The notes beneath the pieces were generated by a model, which did no database searches, had not been told where the DNA came from, and worked only from the letters and a program-made list of their open reading frames with translations. From Candidatus Vampirococcus lugosii (GTDB taxonomy: Bacteria; Patescibacteriota; Gracilibacteria; Absconditabacterales; Absconditicoccaceae): DNA of 7,314 nt. Position 1 is the stretch's first letter, and each line of letters begins with the position of its first letter. The stretch covers positions 1 through 7,314 of the forward strand of contig NZ_JAEDAM010000050.1 in the NCBI RefSeq assembly GCF_018420025.1, in the 5' to 3' direction. The position numbers and the translations under genes are program-made. Of this stretch, positions 1 to 7,314 are shown one piece after another.

Positions 1-295
1 GAGTGACATAAGTTTTTCAATTATATTTGCGAGTACTTTTTTTAATAAACATATTATAATTATTACCACTTAAAATAATAAAAGATAAAAAATAATATAT
101 TTCATTATAATGAAAAAAAGTACAATTTCAAGAGAAAATACAATAATAATCGCCACTACAAAACTAGCTATTTTTTGTTTACAAAGATGGGTTTAAACTT
201 TCTAGTACAATTAAATCTATATTAGATTGAAAATAAAATAAAAATCTATATAATATATATATATATTTTATATAATTAAATATTAATTAAATTAA

Positions 296-622
296 ATGGC
301 AAGAACTAATAAAAAATGAATTGCTGCAAAGAAAGCACAGCTTGCAAAACAAGCTGGTAGATTGAAATGACAAAAAAGATTTAATTATCCCAAAAGAAAT
401 TTATCAATAGAATTAGCAAAAGAATTATCTGTTGTATGAGCAAAAATGAATCCAGCAGGTAGAGAATACAATTGGTTTTTGAGAGGTAGGAAAATATGTT
501 GGGAAACATGACTTAGAGTTGATCCAGATGGTTATAGATTAGTAAGATTACCAAGTGGTTGATTAGAATTTGTTGAAGTACCAGTTTCTGGTTGGGTAAG
601 AAAAAAACTTAGAAAAAGATAA
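296..622 (+). CDS. hypothetical small basic (Lys/Arg-rich) protein, 108 aa under table 25
   Basis: ATG at 296 and TAA at 620-622. The frame stays open only if five in-frame TGA codons (317, 368, 437, 509, 560) are sense. Translation: MARTNKKGIAAKKAQLAKQAGRLKGQKRFNYPKRNLSIELAKELSVVGAKMNPAGREYNWFLRGRKICWETGLRVDPDGYRLVRLPSGGLEFVEVPVSGWVRKKLRKR. I recognise no family. A 109-codon frame free of TAA/TAG is unlikely by chance at this AT content. It is co-directional with aspS and ends 29 nt upstream of it. Confidence 0.55.
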
Positions 623-651
623 ATTTTTAATTTTATAATTAATTTTAAATA

Positions 652-2478
652 ATGTTTAGAACTCATAAATCTTGAGAAATAGATGAAGGTTTTGTTGGAC
701 AAAAAATAACTCTTGCAGGTTGGGTAAATTCTGCTAGAGATCATTGATGAGTTATTTTTATTGATATTAGAGATAGATTTTGAATAACTCAAGTAAAAGC
801 TGATCCTGATACAGTTTCAAATGAAGTTTTGCAAGTTGCTCATTCATTAAAAGATGAATTTGTGATACAAGTTATTTGATTAGTTAGTAAAAGACCAGAT
901 TGAACATATAATCCAAATATTACTACTTGAAAAATAGAGTTAATACCAGATGAAATAAAAATTTTATCTAAATCGGATGTATTGCCTTTTCAAGTTTCTG
1001 AACAGAGTAATGTTGGTGAAGAAATTAGAATGAAATATCGTTATTTGGATTTGAGAAGAGAAAATATGAAAGATAATATTATTACAAGACATAATATGAC
1101 AAAAAAAATATTTGATTATCTTGTAGATAATGATTTTTTGTATATAGAAACTCCTTCTTTGATAAAAAATACTCCTGAATGAGCTAGAGAATATATTGTT
1201 CCTAGTAGAAATAATCCTGGTGAAGCTTATGTTTTGCCTCAATCTCCACAACAACTAAAACAAATGTTGATGTTAAGTTGATTTGATAGATATTTTCAGA
1301 TAGCTAGATGTTTTCGTGATGAAGACTTGAGATGAGATAGACAACCAGAATTTACTCAAATAGATATAGAATTAAGTTTTGCTGAACAAAATGATATTAT
1401 AGATATAATATCTAATCTTTTTGGAGAATTAACAAAAGAATTATTTGATAATAAATTAATAAATGATGAAATTCCTATAATATCTTGGGAAGATGTTATG
1501 AACAGATATTGAATTGATAAACCAGAATTGAGAACTAAAGAAATGCAAATAATAGATATATCAGATATAGCATCTAAATCAGATCTTAAAGTTTTTGGTG
1601 ATGTTGTAAATAAATGATGAGTAATAAAATCTATGGTGGTAGATTCTATTTTTACTAGAAGTCAAATAGATAAATATACTTCTTTACTACAAGAAAAATG
1701 AGCTAAATGATTGGCATATATTATTTGGGATGAAGAATGACCAAAATCACCTATTTTGAAATTTTTTTCTGATGATTTACAAAAAGAATTATTTGAAAAA
1801 TTATGATTATCAAAATGAAAAACAGCTTTTTTTCAAGCAACAGATTGGCTTTTAGCAAATGAATATTTATGATATTTAAGAACAATACTTATTAGAGACT
1901 TAGAACTTACTAAATGAAAAGAAAATGAACTTAATTTTGCTTGGATAGTTGATTTTCCTATGTTTGAAATTGATGAAGAAACTTGAAAATTTGCAAGTAT
2001 GCATCATCCTTTTACTAAACCAAAAGAAGAATTTGTACCTTTCCTTAAAGAAATATGACAAAAATTGAAATTATGAAATAAATTAACTGAAGAAGAAAAA
2101 AAGCAAGTCTTGAATGTAAAAGCTGATGCTTATGATTTAACACTTAATGGTTATGAAATAGCAGGTGGTAGTGTGAGAATATATGATCAAGAATTACAAG
2201 AGACAATATTTTATATATTGTGAATGAATGAAACAGAAATTGAAGAAAGATTTGGACATATGACTCAAGCATTTAAATATTGAGTTCCTCCTCATGCAGG
2301 TATAGCTATATGATTTGATAGAGTAGTTATGATTTATCAAAATATGCCAAATATAAGAGAAGTAATACCTTTTCCAAAAACTCAAAAATGAGAAGATTTA
2401 TTGCTAAATTCTCCTTCTCAAATTGATGATAAATTATTAAAAGAATTATGATTACAAGTTAAAAGAAAAAATAAATAA
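652..2478 (+). CDS. aspS: aspartate--tRNA ligase (bacterial-type AspRS, 608 aa) read with TGA=Gly
   Basis: ATG at 652 and TAA at 2476-2478, with no in-frame TAA/TAG and 28 in-frame TGA by hand count. Hallmark AspRS segments are present: [28 protein letters not shown] (GG = TGA TGA at 745-750), [14 protein letters not shown] (G = TGA at 1180), [44 protein letters not shown] (class II motif 2 region), RYGIDKPELR (TGA at 1510), and [12 protein letters not shown]...[20 protein letters not shown] (motif 3 region, TGA at 2281 and 2311). The length fits the bacterial type carrying the inserted GAD-like domain. Confidence 0.95.
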
Positions 2479-2542
2479 TAATTAAATTTGGGGATAAAAT
2501 AAAGTATAATTGATTTATCTTTTTATAATTTTCATAAAAAAT

Positions 2543-2854
2543 ATGATTAAATGAGTTTCTTTATTTGCAAATGTATGAATAGCAGAGTTTTATTTAAAAG
2601 AACTTTGAATTGATATTGTTGTTGCAAATGAATTATTACAAAAAAGATGTGATTTATATACTTATTTTTATCCTAATTCAAAAATAATTTGTTGAGATAT
2701 AACAAAAGATGAAATATATTATAAAATTTTGGAAAATGCTTTAATACAAAAATGTAATTTTGTTATAGCAACACCACCTTGTCAATGAATGAGTGTTGCA
2801 TGAAAAATGAACGAAGATGATCCAAGAAATAGTTTTAAATATGCCAAAATTTAA
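2543..2854 (+). pseudogene. truncated DNA (cytosine-5) methyltransferase, N-terminal fragment only (103 aa, motifs I-IV)
   Basis: ATG at 2543 and TAA at 2852-2854. Translation under table 25: MIKGVSLFANVGIAEFYLKELGIDIVVANELLQKRCDLYTYFYPNSKIICGDITKDEIYYKILENALIQKCNFVIATPPCQGMSVAGKMNEDDPRNSFKYAKI*. It contains an AdoMet-binding motif I-like LFANVGIAE, the catalytic PPCQ motif IV (TPPCQGMS) and the following DPRN. Full-length C5 MTases are roughly 300-500 aa. The QxRxR motif, target-recognition domain and GNAVP motif X are absent from every downstream frame. Confidence 0.75.
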
Positions 2855-2877
2855 TATAAAAATTGATTTTAAAGTTT

Positions 2878-3174
2878 ATGAAACTAAACACTTGAATAGA
2901 AAAATTAATTAAGATAAATTTTGATAGTTTTGCAAATTTACTTGTTTTAGAAAATATATGGATTAAAAAATTTAAATTACTTAAAATTGCAATAGAAAAA
3001 GGAAATAAAACATGGAAAAAAATTATTGAAAATAAAATAAAATTAGAAAAATTAGAAGAAGAAATGAATATAAATATTGATAATTTTAAAGATAAAATTG
3101 AAAAAATAAAAGTAAAAACTCCAGAAGTTAAAATGTCTTGGGAAAAAATAGAAAGTGAAATAAAGAAAATTTAA
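2878..3174 (+). CDS. hypothetical Lys/Glu-rich, coiled-coil-like protein (98 aa); possibly the decayed continuation of the upstream methyltransferase
   Basis: ATG at 2878 and TAA at 3172-3174, with one in-frame TGA (2893). The frame is open from 2860, which is long for this AT content. Translation: MKLNTGIEKLIKINFDSFANLLVLENIWIKKFKLLKIAIEKGNKTWKKIIENKIKLEKLEEEMNINIDNFKDKIEKIKVKTPEVKMSWEKIESEIKKI. LLVLENI weakly resembles C5-MTase motif VI (hhhhENV), and the rest is low-complexity. Confidence 0.35.
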
Positions 3175-3245
3175 TTTTTTTAGTTATTATTTATTTTATT
3201 TATTGCTATATAATATATATTTTATAAATTAAATTAATTATACAA

Positions 3246-3935
3246 ATGAATTTTTTTTCTGAATCTAATATACAAGAATTACAAGAAATGTTTTGGAAAA
3301 ATTTTGAAAAATCTTTATTAGATTTGAAAAATAATGAACATATATATATATGACTTAGTTGATGAACTTCATTAAATTATTTTTATGAAAAAATATTAAA
3401 AAATTTTAAAAATATTGAATTTGAAATAAGAAAAAAAATAATTTTTGTTTTTGTAGATGAAAGAATAGTTTCTTTAAATCATAAAGATAGTAATTATAAA
3501 CAAATAAAAGATTTTTTTTTATGAAAATTAATTGATCAAAATCTAATTAATCAAGATCAAATTATTTCAATAAATTATGATATAGAAAATATAGCTGATG
3601 ATTATTTTTCAAAAGTTCCTTATATAGATATATCTTTAATATGAGTTTGAGAAGATGGACATATTGCTTCACTTTTTCCAAAACATATTTTGTTGCAAAG
3701 TAAAGAAAAAAAATATTTATCAATAAATGATTCACCAAAAAAACCTTCTCACAGAATTACTATTTCTCCTGAAATGATAAAAGATATTAAATATTGATTT
3801 ATATTTTTTATGTGAGATGCTAAACAAAAAGCTTTAAATAATTTCTTTGATAATAATCTAATTTATAAAGATTGTCCTGCCAAATTAATAAATAATACTA
3901 AAAATGTATTTTTATTTACAGATTTGAAATTATAA
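3246..3935 (+). CDS. pgl: 6-phosphogluconolactonase (229 aa) read with TGA=Gly
   Basis: ATG at 3246 and TAA at 3933-3935, with 8 in-frame TGA. Family signatures are present: HIYIGLSGGTS (G at 3351, GG at 3360-3365, all TGA), IFVFVDERIV, LIGVGEDGHIASLFP (TGA at 3642 and 3648) and GFIFFMGDAKQKAL. The LSGG / DER / GxGxDGHxASLFP combination points to Pgl rather than NagB, which has GxGxDGHIAFNEP. Confidence 0.85.
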
Positions 3936-3965
3936 TATTTTAATTATATAAATTGATAATTTAAT

Positions 3966-5454
3966 ATGCTATTTGATATGGTAGAAGAGTATGATAAACA
4001 AAAAATGGATTTTCTTATAAATCTACGGGAAAAGTCTATAGAAAAATTAGTTACTGTTCAAGATAGCAAAAAAATTATTTCTTTTTTAAATAGGGCTTGA
4101 ATAATTTGAATAGATGAAAAAAAACAAATAGTTTATATATGAGTTCCAAACGAATTTGTATTATCTCAAGCAAAAAAATTTTTTAAAAAACATTTTGATA
4201 ATGTTATCAATGAAATATATAATAATAGTTATAAAGTTGATTTTATTGTATACTGAAAATTTCAAACTTGAAAACATAAACTGCAAAAAGATATAAAAAA
4301 AATATTAAATATAAAAAAAAATTGAATCAGATTTTCCCAAAACTATAGATAATAATACAAAAGAAGTTTTAAAAAATAATTTTGGTATATTATTTGATCC
4401 TAGATATAGATTTGATAATTTTATAGTAGGATGAAGTAATCAACTTGCATATTCTGCATCTTTTTCTATTGCTGAAAATCCTGGTAAAGTATATAATCCA
4501 TTTTTTATATATTGAAATGTATGACTTGGTAAAACACATTTATTACAATCAATTTGAAATTATACTATATCAAATTTTAAAGATAAAGTAGTTGTATATT
4601 TGCCTACTAGTAAATTAATTGATGAAATAGTTGAAAATATTAGAAAAAATACTATTAATAATTTAACAAAAAAATTGGATGAAGTAGATGTTTTAATATT
4701 AGATGATATTCAATTTTTGGCAGGAAAAGATAAAACTCAAGAAATCTTTCATAATATATTTAATGATTTTTATTCCAAAAAAAAGCAAATAGTTTTATCT
4801 TCTGATCGTCCTCCAAAAGAACTTGATTTGTTGGAAGCAAGACTTAGAAGTAGATTTTGAATTTGATTAGTAACTGATATAAAAAAACCAGACTTTGAAA
4901 CAAGAATGGCTATAATTAACTCAAAATTGAGAGAAAAATCTGAATATTTGGAATATGAATATATAGAAATAATTGCTAAATATGTAAAAGATAATGTAAG
5001 AGAAATTGAATGAGCTGTAAATATAATGTTAACTAGGAAAAATTTATTGTGACAAGATTTGACAGAAAAAGATATATATGATTGACTAGAAATATTGTGA
5101 TACAATGTATGAAAAGAAAGTTTACAAGATGCAAAAATTAAGGATGCTGATACTATGAATAATAAAAGTTATAAATCATTTGCTAAAATATTGGAATATA
5201 TAGCTAATTATTATAGTATATCTATCTCTGATATAAAATGAAATTCAAGAAAAAAAGAGGTTAGTGTAGCTAGACAAATGCTTATGTATATAGCAAAAAA
5301 ACATTATTGATGGACTTTGGAAAAAATTTGAACTTATTTTGGAGGTAAAAATCATGCCACTGTAATATATGCAATTAAAAATTTTGAAAAATTATTGAAA
5401 AGTAATACTACAATATACAATGATTATCATATAATAATACAAGATCTTGTATAA
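3966..5454 (+). CDS. dnaA: chromosomal replication initiator DnaA, interrupted as sequenced by a one-nucleotide frame change at an A9 run
   Basis: Segment 1 runs from ATG 3966 in one frame to TAA 4350-4352 and encodes DnaA domain I-like sequence (...KKQIVYIGVPNEFVLSQAKKFFKKHFDNVINEIY...). Segment 2 is in the +1 frame, open from 4315 to TAA 5452-5454. It encodes [55 protein letters not shown] (Walker A, G at 4513 and 4522 = TGA), VLILDDIQFLAGKDKTQEIFHNIFN (Walker B), [45 protein letters not shown] (TGA at 5011), and domain IV ARQMLMYIAKKHYGWTLEKIGTYFGGKNHATVIYA. Dropping one A from the 4313-4321 run joins both segments into a protein of about 495 aa. Frame 2 has no ATG/GTG/TTG before the P-loop; the first is TTG at 4600. 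Confidence 0.9.
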
Positions 5455-5457
5455 AAA

Positions 5458-5482
5458 AACCTACCGTAAATATCGGTAGGTT
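5458..5482. terminator. GC-rich hairpin, intrinsic-terminator-like, with its canonical T-tract on the minus strand
   Basis: The stem pairs AACCTACCG (5458-5466) with CGGTAGGTT (5474-5482), a 7-bp GC-containing core plus 2 A:T pairs, around the 7-nt loop TAAATAT. It starts 4 nt after the dnaA stop. On the plus strand it is preceded by A7 (5453-5459) and followed only by TT then A6. On the minus strand it is followed by T7, the classic rho-independent layout. It is the only such GC-rich hairpin I see in the window. Confidence 0.5.
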
Positions 5483-5689
5483 AAAAAATTGTATGAATAT
5501 AATTTATTTATAAGTTTTTACTTTTGAGTTGTAAGAAAGTTCCAAATAAAATTGGAACATAGGATCATTGAATTGCTGTATCAAAATGTTTAAACTTATC
5601 CAAAAATAAATCATAGTATAAATTGTCCTCATATTTATTACCAAAAGTTGTATAACTATAAAGATTTAATACATAAAATCAAGTTTAAA

Positions 5690-6781
5690 ATGAAAAATTT
5701 AATTTTTGATCAGGAAAAATTAGAAGAATTTAGAAAAAAAAATAAATTACAACCATTTAGAATTAAACAAATTTATCAAGAAATATTTAAAAATTCAAAT
5801 ATTGATTTTTGAAATTGTACAAGTTTATCAAAAGAATTAAGAGAAAGTTTAGATAAAAATTTTGAAATATTATCAATTAAAATTAAAGAAATAATTGAAT
5901 GATATGAATCTACAAAATTTTTATTTGAAACAAAAAATTCAAAAACTTTTGAATCTGTATTAATGTATCATTGGCATACAAAAAATAATTGAGATAAAAA
6001 AATAAATAGAATTACTTTATGTGTTTCTTCTCAAGTAGGTTGTGCAGTAGCTTGTATTTTTTGTGTTACAGGTAAACTTGGTTTTTTGGCAAATTTGCTT
6101 TGGGAGGAAATAATATGACAATTACTTTTCGCAAATAATTATATAAAAAATAAATTTTGAAAAAAAGATGATTGAACTTATCATAAAGTAAGAAATATTG
6201 TTTTTATGTGAATGTGAGAACCTTTATTAAATTATAATAATGTAAAAAAATCAATTGAAATAATGCTTGGTCAATGATATTGATTTAGTTTATCCAAAAG
6301 ACATATTACAATTTCTACATCTTGAATTATACCTTGAATACAAAAAATGATAGATGATAATATTGAATCTATGCTTGCTATATCTTTGCATGCACCAAAT
6401 CAAGAACTTAGAGAAAAATTAGTGCCTATATGAAAAAAATATAAATTAAATGAATTAATTTATATTCTTGATAATTATTATAAAAAAACAAAAAATAGAA
6501 TTTTTTATGAATATATAATGATAAAAGATATGAATGACCTTTCTAAAAATGCTATAGAACTTTCAAAATTATTGAAACATCAAAATTGTCATATAAATTT
6601 GATACCATATAATGAAAATCCAGCAATGCCAAATTTACAGGAAACTGAAACAAGTAGTATATACAAATTTAAAGAAATACTTGAAAATAATTGATTGACA
6701 GTTACCGTGAGAACTAATATGTGAAGGGAAGAAAAATCAGCTTGTGGACAATTATGATGGGAAAATATAGCTAAATGATAA
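5690..6781 (+). CDS. rlmN: 23S rRNA/tRNA adenine-C2 methyltransferase RlmN (radical SAM, 363 aa) read with TGA=Gly
   Basis: ATG at 5690 and TAA at 6779-6781, with about 17 in-frame TGA. Motifs: [11 protein letters not shown] (N-terminal RlmN domain), the radical-SAM cluster [22 protein letters not shown] (CxxxCxxC), NIVFMGMGEPLLN (both G = TGA at 6209 and 6215), [51 protein letters not shown] and SACGQLGW near the C-terminus. Confidence 0.92.
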
Positions 6782-6790
6782 ATTTATTTT

Positions 6791-7314
6791 TTATTTATCT
6801 AATTTTTTCTTCTTTTTTATTTTATATTTTTTCATTATTCTTTCTGATTCGTTATTTTTAATATTTTCTTTTTCATTTTTTTTATTTTTTGTTTTATTAG
6901 TTGTTTTTTCATTAACTTTAGTAAAAGTAATATTTCACGATTTATTTTTAATATTATCAATTTTATTTTTAATATCATCAGTTTTCTGTTGAGTTTTTTC
7001 TTTTACAGAATCAAATTTTTCTTTTGAATTATTTTTAGTATCATCAATTTTATTTTTAATATCATCAGTTTTTTGTTGAGTTTTTTCTTTTACAGAATTA
7101 AATTTTTCTTTTATATTATTTGTAGTATCAAAAAACTTTTCTTGAATATAAGTAAATTTTTCTTTTATAGATTCAAATTTTTCTTCTGCATTATTAGAAT
7201 TAGTTTTATTAGAATCATCTAAATTAGAATTAGTTTTATTAGAATCATCTAAATTAGAATTAGATTTATTAGAATCATCTAAATTAGAATTAGTTTTATT
7301 AGAATCATCTAAAT
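6791..7314 (-). CDS. hypothetical low-complexity repeat protein, C-terminal 173 aa (5' end lies beyond the window)
   Basis: The minus-strand frame is open from the window edge down to TAA at 6793-6791, with one in-frame TGA at 6937-6935. Translation: (N)LDDSNKTNSN LDDSNKSNSN LDDSNKTNSN LDDSNKTNSN NAEEKFESIKEKFTYIQEKFFDTTNNIKEKFNSVKEKTQQKTDDIKNKIDDTKNNSKEKFDSVKEKTQQKTDDIKNKIDNIKNKSGNITFTKVNEKTTNKTKNKKNEKENIKNNESERIMKKYKIKKKKKLDK*. The coding strand is purine-rich and the 174-codon frame has no TAA/TAG. The gene converges on rlmN with only 9 nt between the two stop codons. No family recognised. Confidence 0.7.
6941..7130 (-). repeat. 87-bp tandem repeat, about 2.2 copies, encoding 29-aa units (KEKFxSVKEKTQQKTDDIKNKIDxxKNxS)
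   Basis: By hand alignment, 6941-7027 and 7028-7114 differ at about 7 of 87 positions. A third copy starts at 7115 (ATTATTTGTAGTATCA) and then diverges. The period of 87 is 29 codons, so the repeat stays in frame in the minus-strand CDS. Confidence 0.85.
7193..7314 (-). repeat. 30-bp perfect tandem repeat, at least 4 copies, truncated by the window edge, encoding the decapeptide LDDSNKTNSN
   Basis: The unit ATTAGAATTAGTTTTATTAGAATCATCTAA occupies 7193-7222, 7223-7252, 7253-7282 and 7283-7312, then restarts at 7313. The third copy has a single substitution (TAGATTT instead of TAGTTTT), giving KSN instead of KTN. Each unit holds an internal 15-bp half-repeat (ATTAGAAT occurs twice). The repeat is in frame within the minus-strand CDS. 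Confidence 0.95.

Follow-up and report, generated by a model that had tools for sequence, protein, structure and literature searches.

The dnaA gene of Candidatus Vampirococcus lugosii, which is split by a frameshift in the deposited genome, is in our judgment an ordinary intact gene, and the ninth A in the homopolymer at which the reading frame breaks is, with a probability of about 0.9, an error that entered during amplification, sequencing or assembly, or else no more than a minority allele. Frame continuity is broken in the deposited contig (A9) and unbroken in two further assemblies of this organism, both with A8 and both encoding a DnaA of 495 amino acids. No lineage among the Absconditabacteria that we compared carries a frameshift at this site.

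Results

Sequence, genetic code and gene content

The window, by which we mean the whole stretch of DNA that was analysed, is a complete contig of 7,314 bp from Candidatus Vampirococcus lugosii (Absconditabacteria/SR1) with a GC content of 21%. Genetic code 25, in which TGA encodes glycine, applies throughout (for example at 4513-4536, 4098-4100 and 4323-4325). This code is required because the motifs of DnaA, including the Walker A region IY-TGA-NV-TGA-LGKTH, RSRF-G-x-G-L and RE(I/L)EG, carry TGA at glycine positions, and the REIE-G-A motif likewise makes sense only with TGA as glycine. The same reassignment was stated in the paper describing the genome (PMC8080830). ORF calling with translation table 11 breaks up every gene of the contig, and domain I of DnaA would then end at 4100. 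Many homologues in the databases carry tryptophan at the TGA positions, in the manner of a code-4 translation. Under code 25, the contig contains a 108-aa ORF, an intact AspRS gene, an N-terminal fragment of a C5 DNA methyltransferase gene, a Lys/Glu-rich ORF, a 6-phosphogluconolactonase-like gene (pgl), dnaA, rlmN and a gene for a repeat protein on the minus strand. Scans of the window for Rfam families and tRNAs gave no matches.

The dnaA reading frames as deposited

The layout of the two dnaA frames in the deposited sequence is exactly as the earlier note had described it (Table 1). The frame of domain I opens with an ATG, continues to ...KKILNIKKNGIRFSQNYR and, read with code 25, terminates at TAA 4350-4352. 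The AAA+ and DNA-binding domains are encoded in the +1 frame, which is open from 4315 to 5451 and closed upstream by a TAA at 4312-4314, and the run of nine A lies where the two frames meet. In the +1 frame, no ATG, GTG or TTG precedes the Walker A motif, the earliest such codon being TTG 4600 downstream of it. The product of the +1 frame comprises 379 amino acids and matches the Pfam families Bac_DnaA (3e-62) and Bac_DnaA_C (5e-24). Homology to other DnaA proteins extends in frame 0 through ...ILNIKK and restarts in frame +1 at ...IDNNTKEVL. Together with the stop codons in both frames, these limits imply that the switch must fall within 4315-4349. Apart from the A-run, both halves of the gene are intact, without any further lesion. 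The window contains two A9 runs and one T9 run, and a rough estimate from base composition predicts about two runs of this length by chance, so that an A9 by itself is not unusual in this sequence.

The C-terminal part of the gene is represented in GenBank by MBS8122183.1 (WP_244831595.1), an entry of 284 aa named 'DnaA' or 'DnaA/Hda family protein' that spans only 4600-5454. As this entry starts at TTG 4600, it lacks the ATP-binding loop of the Walker A motif.

Table 1. Features of the dnaA locus in the window (positions refer to the deposited contig).
Feature	Position	Strand	Remark
Frame-0 ORF: DnaA domain I and the first part of the linker, ending with 10 out-of-frame codons and TAA	3966..4352	+	GenBank MBS8122182.1, 'hypothetical protein', 128 aa
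A9 homopolymer; A8 in the two Logan assemblies, and their sole difference from this contig in dnaA	4313..4321	+	
Frame +1 ORF: remaining linker, AAA+ domain III and DNA-binding domain IV; stop TAA 5452-5454	4315..5454	+	
Walker A motif GNVGLGKT; TGA codes for two of its glycines	4513..4536	+	
dnaA as one uninterrupted frame of 495 aa, with the run at A8	3966..5454	+	Product on record (P0121, Logan, SRR13241708 and SRR13241709)

The repaired protein and its genomic neighbourhood

As had been anticipated from the sequence, removal of one A joins the two frames into a DnaA of 495 aa. This protein aligns end to end, at 100% coverage, with the DnaA proteins of 488-498 aa from relatives. The alignment to the closest relatives is gapless, with identities of 74% to L006, 70% to P0001 and 66% to the protein of Absconditicoccus praedator. 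Domain I is present, since residues 1-118 align with 22 full-length DnaA proteins of Absconditabacteria, whose N-termini match through ...LQKDIKKILNIKK; the Pfam match to DnaA_N is weak and below threshold (E 0.068). The AAA+ domain III is covered by PF00308 (Bac_DnaA) from position 2 to 162 of the 162 profile positions with an E-value of 3.2e-62, including the Walker A motif, and the helix-turn-helix domain IV by PF08299 (Bac_DnaA_C; 5.1e-24). As a member of the DnaA family the gene is ordinary: domain I and a variable linker are followed by the AAA+ and DNA-binding domains. DnaA of Absconditicoccus praedator (P0002), also of 495 aa and aligned at 100% coverage, has the same four-domain layout and shares the use of TGA for conserved glycines, and in both organisms rlmN lies downstream. 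The two genes differ in the variable linker (ILNIKKIESDFPKTID here versus ILGTNNKKNTPPENID in Absconditicoccus praedator) and in the upstream neighbour, which is pgl here and prfA there.

In the region 3228-6778, dnaA is not adjacent to dnaN, and rlmN is the conserved downstream neighbour. The upstream neighbour is pgl in the window and in L001, and the order pgl-dnaA-rlmN is thus common to both; in L003, L004 and L005, prfA occupies this place. A search for DnaA boxes (TTATCCACA, at most one mismatch) revealed no cluster and no oriC by dnaA, only scattered matches with one mismatch. Just past the dnaA stop codon, at 5458-5482, a strong hairpin with a 9-bp stem containing G+C (AACCTACCG...CGGTAGGTT) lies between an A-run and a T-run. 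This hairpin was scored as terminator-like on the minus strand, and a second hairpin is located at 5539-5558, giving two terminator-like hairpin sites in comparison to 0.1 expected from shuffled sequences.

A run of eight A in two other assemblies

Eight possible products, corresponding to the A9, A8 and A10 versions of the gene with TGA translated as either Gly or Trp, were looked up by exact sequence. The full-length A8 protein of 495 aa is on record (P0121) from two Logan contigs, there translated with TGA as Trp. The A9-derived pieces were found by this look-up only as GenBank MBS8122182.1 and MBS8122183.1, and no A10 product was on record. Logan contig L086, from SRR13241708, has a length of 6,692 bp, covers positions 160-6853 of the window and is 99.94% identical to it. 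Logan contig L087, from SRR13241709, has a length of 3,841 bp and covers positions 3002-6843 with 99.95% identity. According to exact look-up, these two are the only Logan contigs that carry pgl, rlmN and dnaA. The base-by-base comparison, which was made between assemblies, showed that both have A8 where the window has A9 at 4313-4321. Both contigs encode precisely the ...ILNIKKIESDFPK... protein that the earlier note had predicted for a run of eight A. Reads supporting A8 had been set beforehand as the finding that refutes the frameshift, and at the level of assemblies A8 is what we obtained. Among the homopolymers of at least 7 nt in the overlap, 28 of 29 agree, including the A9 at 5734-5742 and the T9 at 3512-3520, leaving the run in dnaA as the sole mismatch. 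We infer that SRR13241708 and SRR13241709 are runs of PRJNA678638 from the 99.94% identity over 6.7 kb; a literature search for the two run accessions returned no paper naming either.

Two further differences concern other parts of the contig. At position 6539, in codon 284 of rlmN, the deposited contig has C (Leu) and both Logan contigs have T (Phe). Residue 284 of RlmN varies among relatives (L/F/K/S/E), and we therefore rejected the Leu/Phe difference as an arbiter of the correct assembly, the position being uninformative. In the intergenic (AT)n repeat at 249-265, the window reads ...ATATATATATATATTTT and L086 reads ...ATATATATCATATTTT, which is one base shorter and contains a C. This discrepancy, at 261-262, is associated with the repeat and was found in L086 alone.

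The linker in related genomes

The scan of genome contigs gave 80 relatives, all of them organisms other than Candidatus Vampirococcus lugosii. Under code 25, dnaA is continuous in all 58 of the 58 Absconditabacteria loci with a full-length match in the GTDB genome collection. A frameshift at the linker site is thus not conserved, which argues against a programmed recoding signal. Comparison of the same position in related genomes, which had been proposed as a check, accordingly uncovered no frameshift in any of these loci. The linker is encoded in a single frame in L006 (ILNIKNNTSNNQCNLD; 74% identity), in L001 (ILGIKKTNGNCNID; 70% identity) and in Absconditicoccus, and in all three the homologous lysine codons form in-frame runs of A5-A8. 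Within the Lys-rich linker (codons 101-135) of the 58 relatives, A7 occurs in 26, A8 in 7 and an in-frame A9 in 3. Since long A-runs are common in the linkers of Absconditabacteria, other assemblies carry a risk of homopolymer miscalls there, too. Placing the shift by homology was attempted and given up, the linkers of L006 and L001 being too divergent. A 7-nt match (AAT TGA A) between frame 0 of the window and L001 hinted at a shift downstream of the A-run; this location was dropped because, within dnaA, the A8 assemblies differ from the window at the run only.

Other features of the contig

Of a C5 cytosine DNA methyltransferase, the region 2543-2854 (+) encodes no more than the N-terminal quarter, which matches positions 2-88 of the 324 positions of PF00145 and includes the motif PPCQGMS. 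This region is identical in L086, so that the truncation, unlike the break in dnaA, is reproducible, and the fragment probably represents a genuine remnant of a gene. Downstream of it, in a different frame, lies the Lys/Glu-rich ORF (2878-3174, +), which contains the string 'LENI' and has no methylase match. The 108-aa ORF upstream of aspS (296-619, +; MARTNKKGIAAKKAQL...) encodes a basic protein, was called identically in L086 and has no match in Pfam. At the other end of the window, the minus-strand ORF (6794-7312) runs off the contig and contains several tandem repeats of NLDDSNK(T/S)NS as well as longer KEKF.SVKEKTQQKTDDIKNKID units. The two Logan contigs stop at about 6843-6853, indicating that this tandem repeat probably breaks assemblies.

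Discussion

Origin of the extra A

The origin of the material offers a plausible source for a one-base error in a long homopolymer. Three samples of about ten infected cells each were taken from a bloom that was described as clonal, and the DNA was amplified by MDA in two of the samples and by MALBAC in one (PMC8080830). Reads were obtained on an Illumina HiSeq (2x125), SPAdes 3.6.0 was run on each sample by itself, the contigs from MDA and from MALBAC were combined afterwards, and genes were called by Prodigal with table 25; the paper makes no mention of a problem in dnaA, of a frameshift or of a pseudogene (PMC8080830). Such a setting of amplification from few cells is prone to homopolymer slippage in vitro. 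The extra A most likely came from polymerase slippage during whole-genome amplification of very few cells, or else from sequencing or assembly. With so few templates, a slippage event early in the amplification could come to dominate one library. The private difference at 6539 would fit a contig that derives from a data set or consensus with errors of its own.

In its form, the A9 resembles the homopolymer-length errors of few-cell assemblies obtained by MDA or MALBAC: the change is a single base confined to a long A-run, it does not recur in other assemblies, and without it the gene is full-length and conserved; we found no respect in which it departs from such errors. Two points weigh on the other side. 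At runs of 9 nt, neither Illumina sequencing nor phi29 polymerase is especially prone to error, and transcriptional slippage can occur on a tract of the length of A9, so that such an allele, if real, need not be lethal. Of the three readings offered in the earlier note, the homopolymer-length error is borne out by the A8 in two assemblies from different runs. The other two readings, slippage or +1 frameshifting in the cell and an initiator that is split or inactivated, find no support, the frameshift being missing from the other assemblies and from all 58 relatives.

Alternative explanations

Runs of at least nine A are known slippage sites, as exemplified by the A9 of dnaX in Thermus thermophilus and by the rescue of frameshifted genes at poly(A) tracts in Buchnera and Blochmannia. 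The A9 could be a real allele in one of the three consortia, with RNA polymerase slipping on the A9/T9 tract, or the ribosome sliding on AAA AAA AA, often enough to yield sufficient in-frame DnaA. The presence of A9 in the deposited contig, the undamaged state of both dnaA halves and the substitution at 6539 relative to both other assemblies, which could mark a slightly different genotype, are compatible with such an allele, and the superficial likeness to the slippage-rescued genes of AT-rich endosymbionts extends to the AT-rich, reduced genome, to the position of an A9 at the frame junction and to a one-base mismatch that an mRNA with one A fewer would correct. However, slippage rescue presupposes that the genome itself is frameshifted at a run of roughly nine or more A or T, and here the A9 is found in the deposited contig only; in contrast to the rescued genes, the genomic frameshift is not reproducible, two assemblies having A8, and there is nothing to rescue. 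None of the relatives is frameshifted at the linker site, and amplification from few templates is the simpler explanation. A frameshift in an essential gene would, moreover, presumably have had to dominate a pool of many cells, each sample having comprised about ten infected cells from a bloom described as clonal (PMC8080830). We therefore regard a real A9 allele as an outside chance. A more elaborate version, in which cells with A9 form a subpopulation that survives because slippage of RNA polymerase or sliding of the ribosome provides full-length DnaA in sufficient amounts, and in which the A8/A9 polymorphism acts as an accidental dosage switch for replication initiation in a predatory, code-25 CPR bacterium, appears quite improbable to us.

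An evolved recoding signal that joins the two frames by a programmed +1 ribosomal frameshift at the A-run would share with frameshifting of the prfB type the direction of the shift and a UGA close to the site. The UGA is indeed located one codon past the run, and a tRNA-Lys that moves by +1 on AAA AAA A can pair again without mismatch. The differences from the prfB type are that the site is not conserved, no stop or slow codon directly follows the slippery codon, the UGA is a sense codon and no stimulator resembling a Shine-Dalgarno sequence is present. More specifically, the run is followed by AAU, which is neither a stop nor an obvious hungry codon, and the next UGA encodes glycine. The upstream sequence AAAATATTAAATAT consists of A and T only and contains no GGAGG-like stimulator and no purine-rich element with G. 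Given in addition the A8 in two assemblies of the same organism, the continuous gene in every one of the 58 relatives and the in-frame runs of A5-A8 at the homologous lysine codons of the closest among them, we give this mechanism next to no credence. Very unlikely as well is a dnaA that is truly split or inactivated, either as a decaying gene or as an initiator in two pieces accompanied by another initiator elsewhere. The annotation as two separate CDSs in GenBank would agree with a split gene. Yet two assemblies contain the intact gene, neither half carries another lesion, and the C-terminal frame has no canonical start codon before Walker A and hence cannot provide a separate functional AAA+ piece. 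In addition, all universal single-copy markers that were searched in the source paper were present as single copies (PMC8080830).

Implications for the annotation and for replication initiation

An artefactual ninth A in an intact dnaA remains our preferred reading, and we suggest that MBS8122182.1 and MBS8122183.1 should be merged into one DnaA of 495 aa. Questions of this kind can be settled by independent re-assemblies of public reads, such as those of Logan, without recourse to the raw reads. If the A9 were real, Candidatus Vampirococcus lugosii would present the rare case of an essential replication initiator that depends on recoding, in the reduced genome of a CPR bacterium. With A8, no recoding mechanism is needed. 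The value of the finding is then curatorial: the correct public product is the 495-aa DnaA, and the split record could mislead comparative studies of replication in CPR bacteria.
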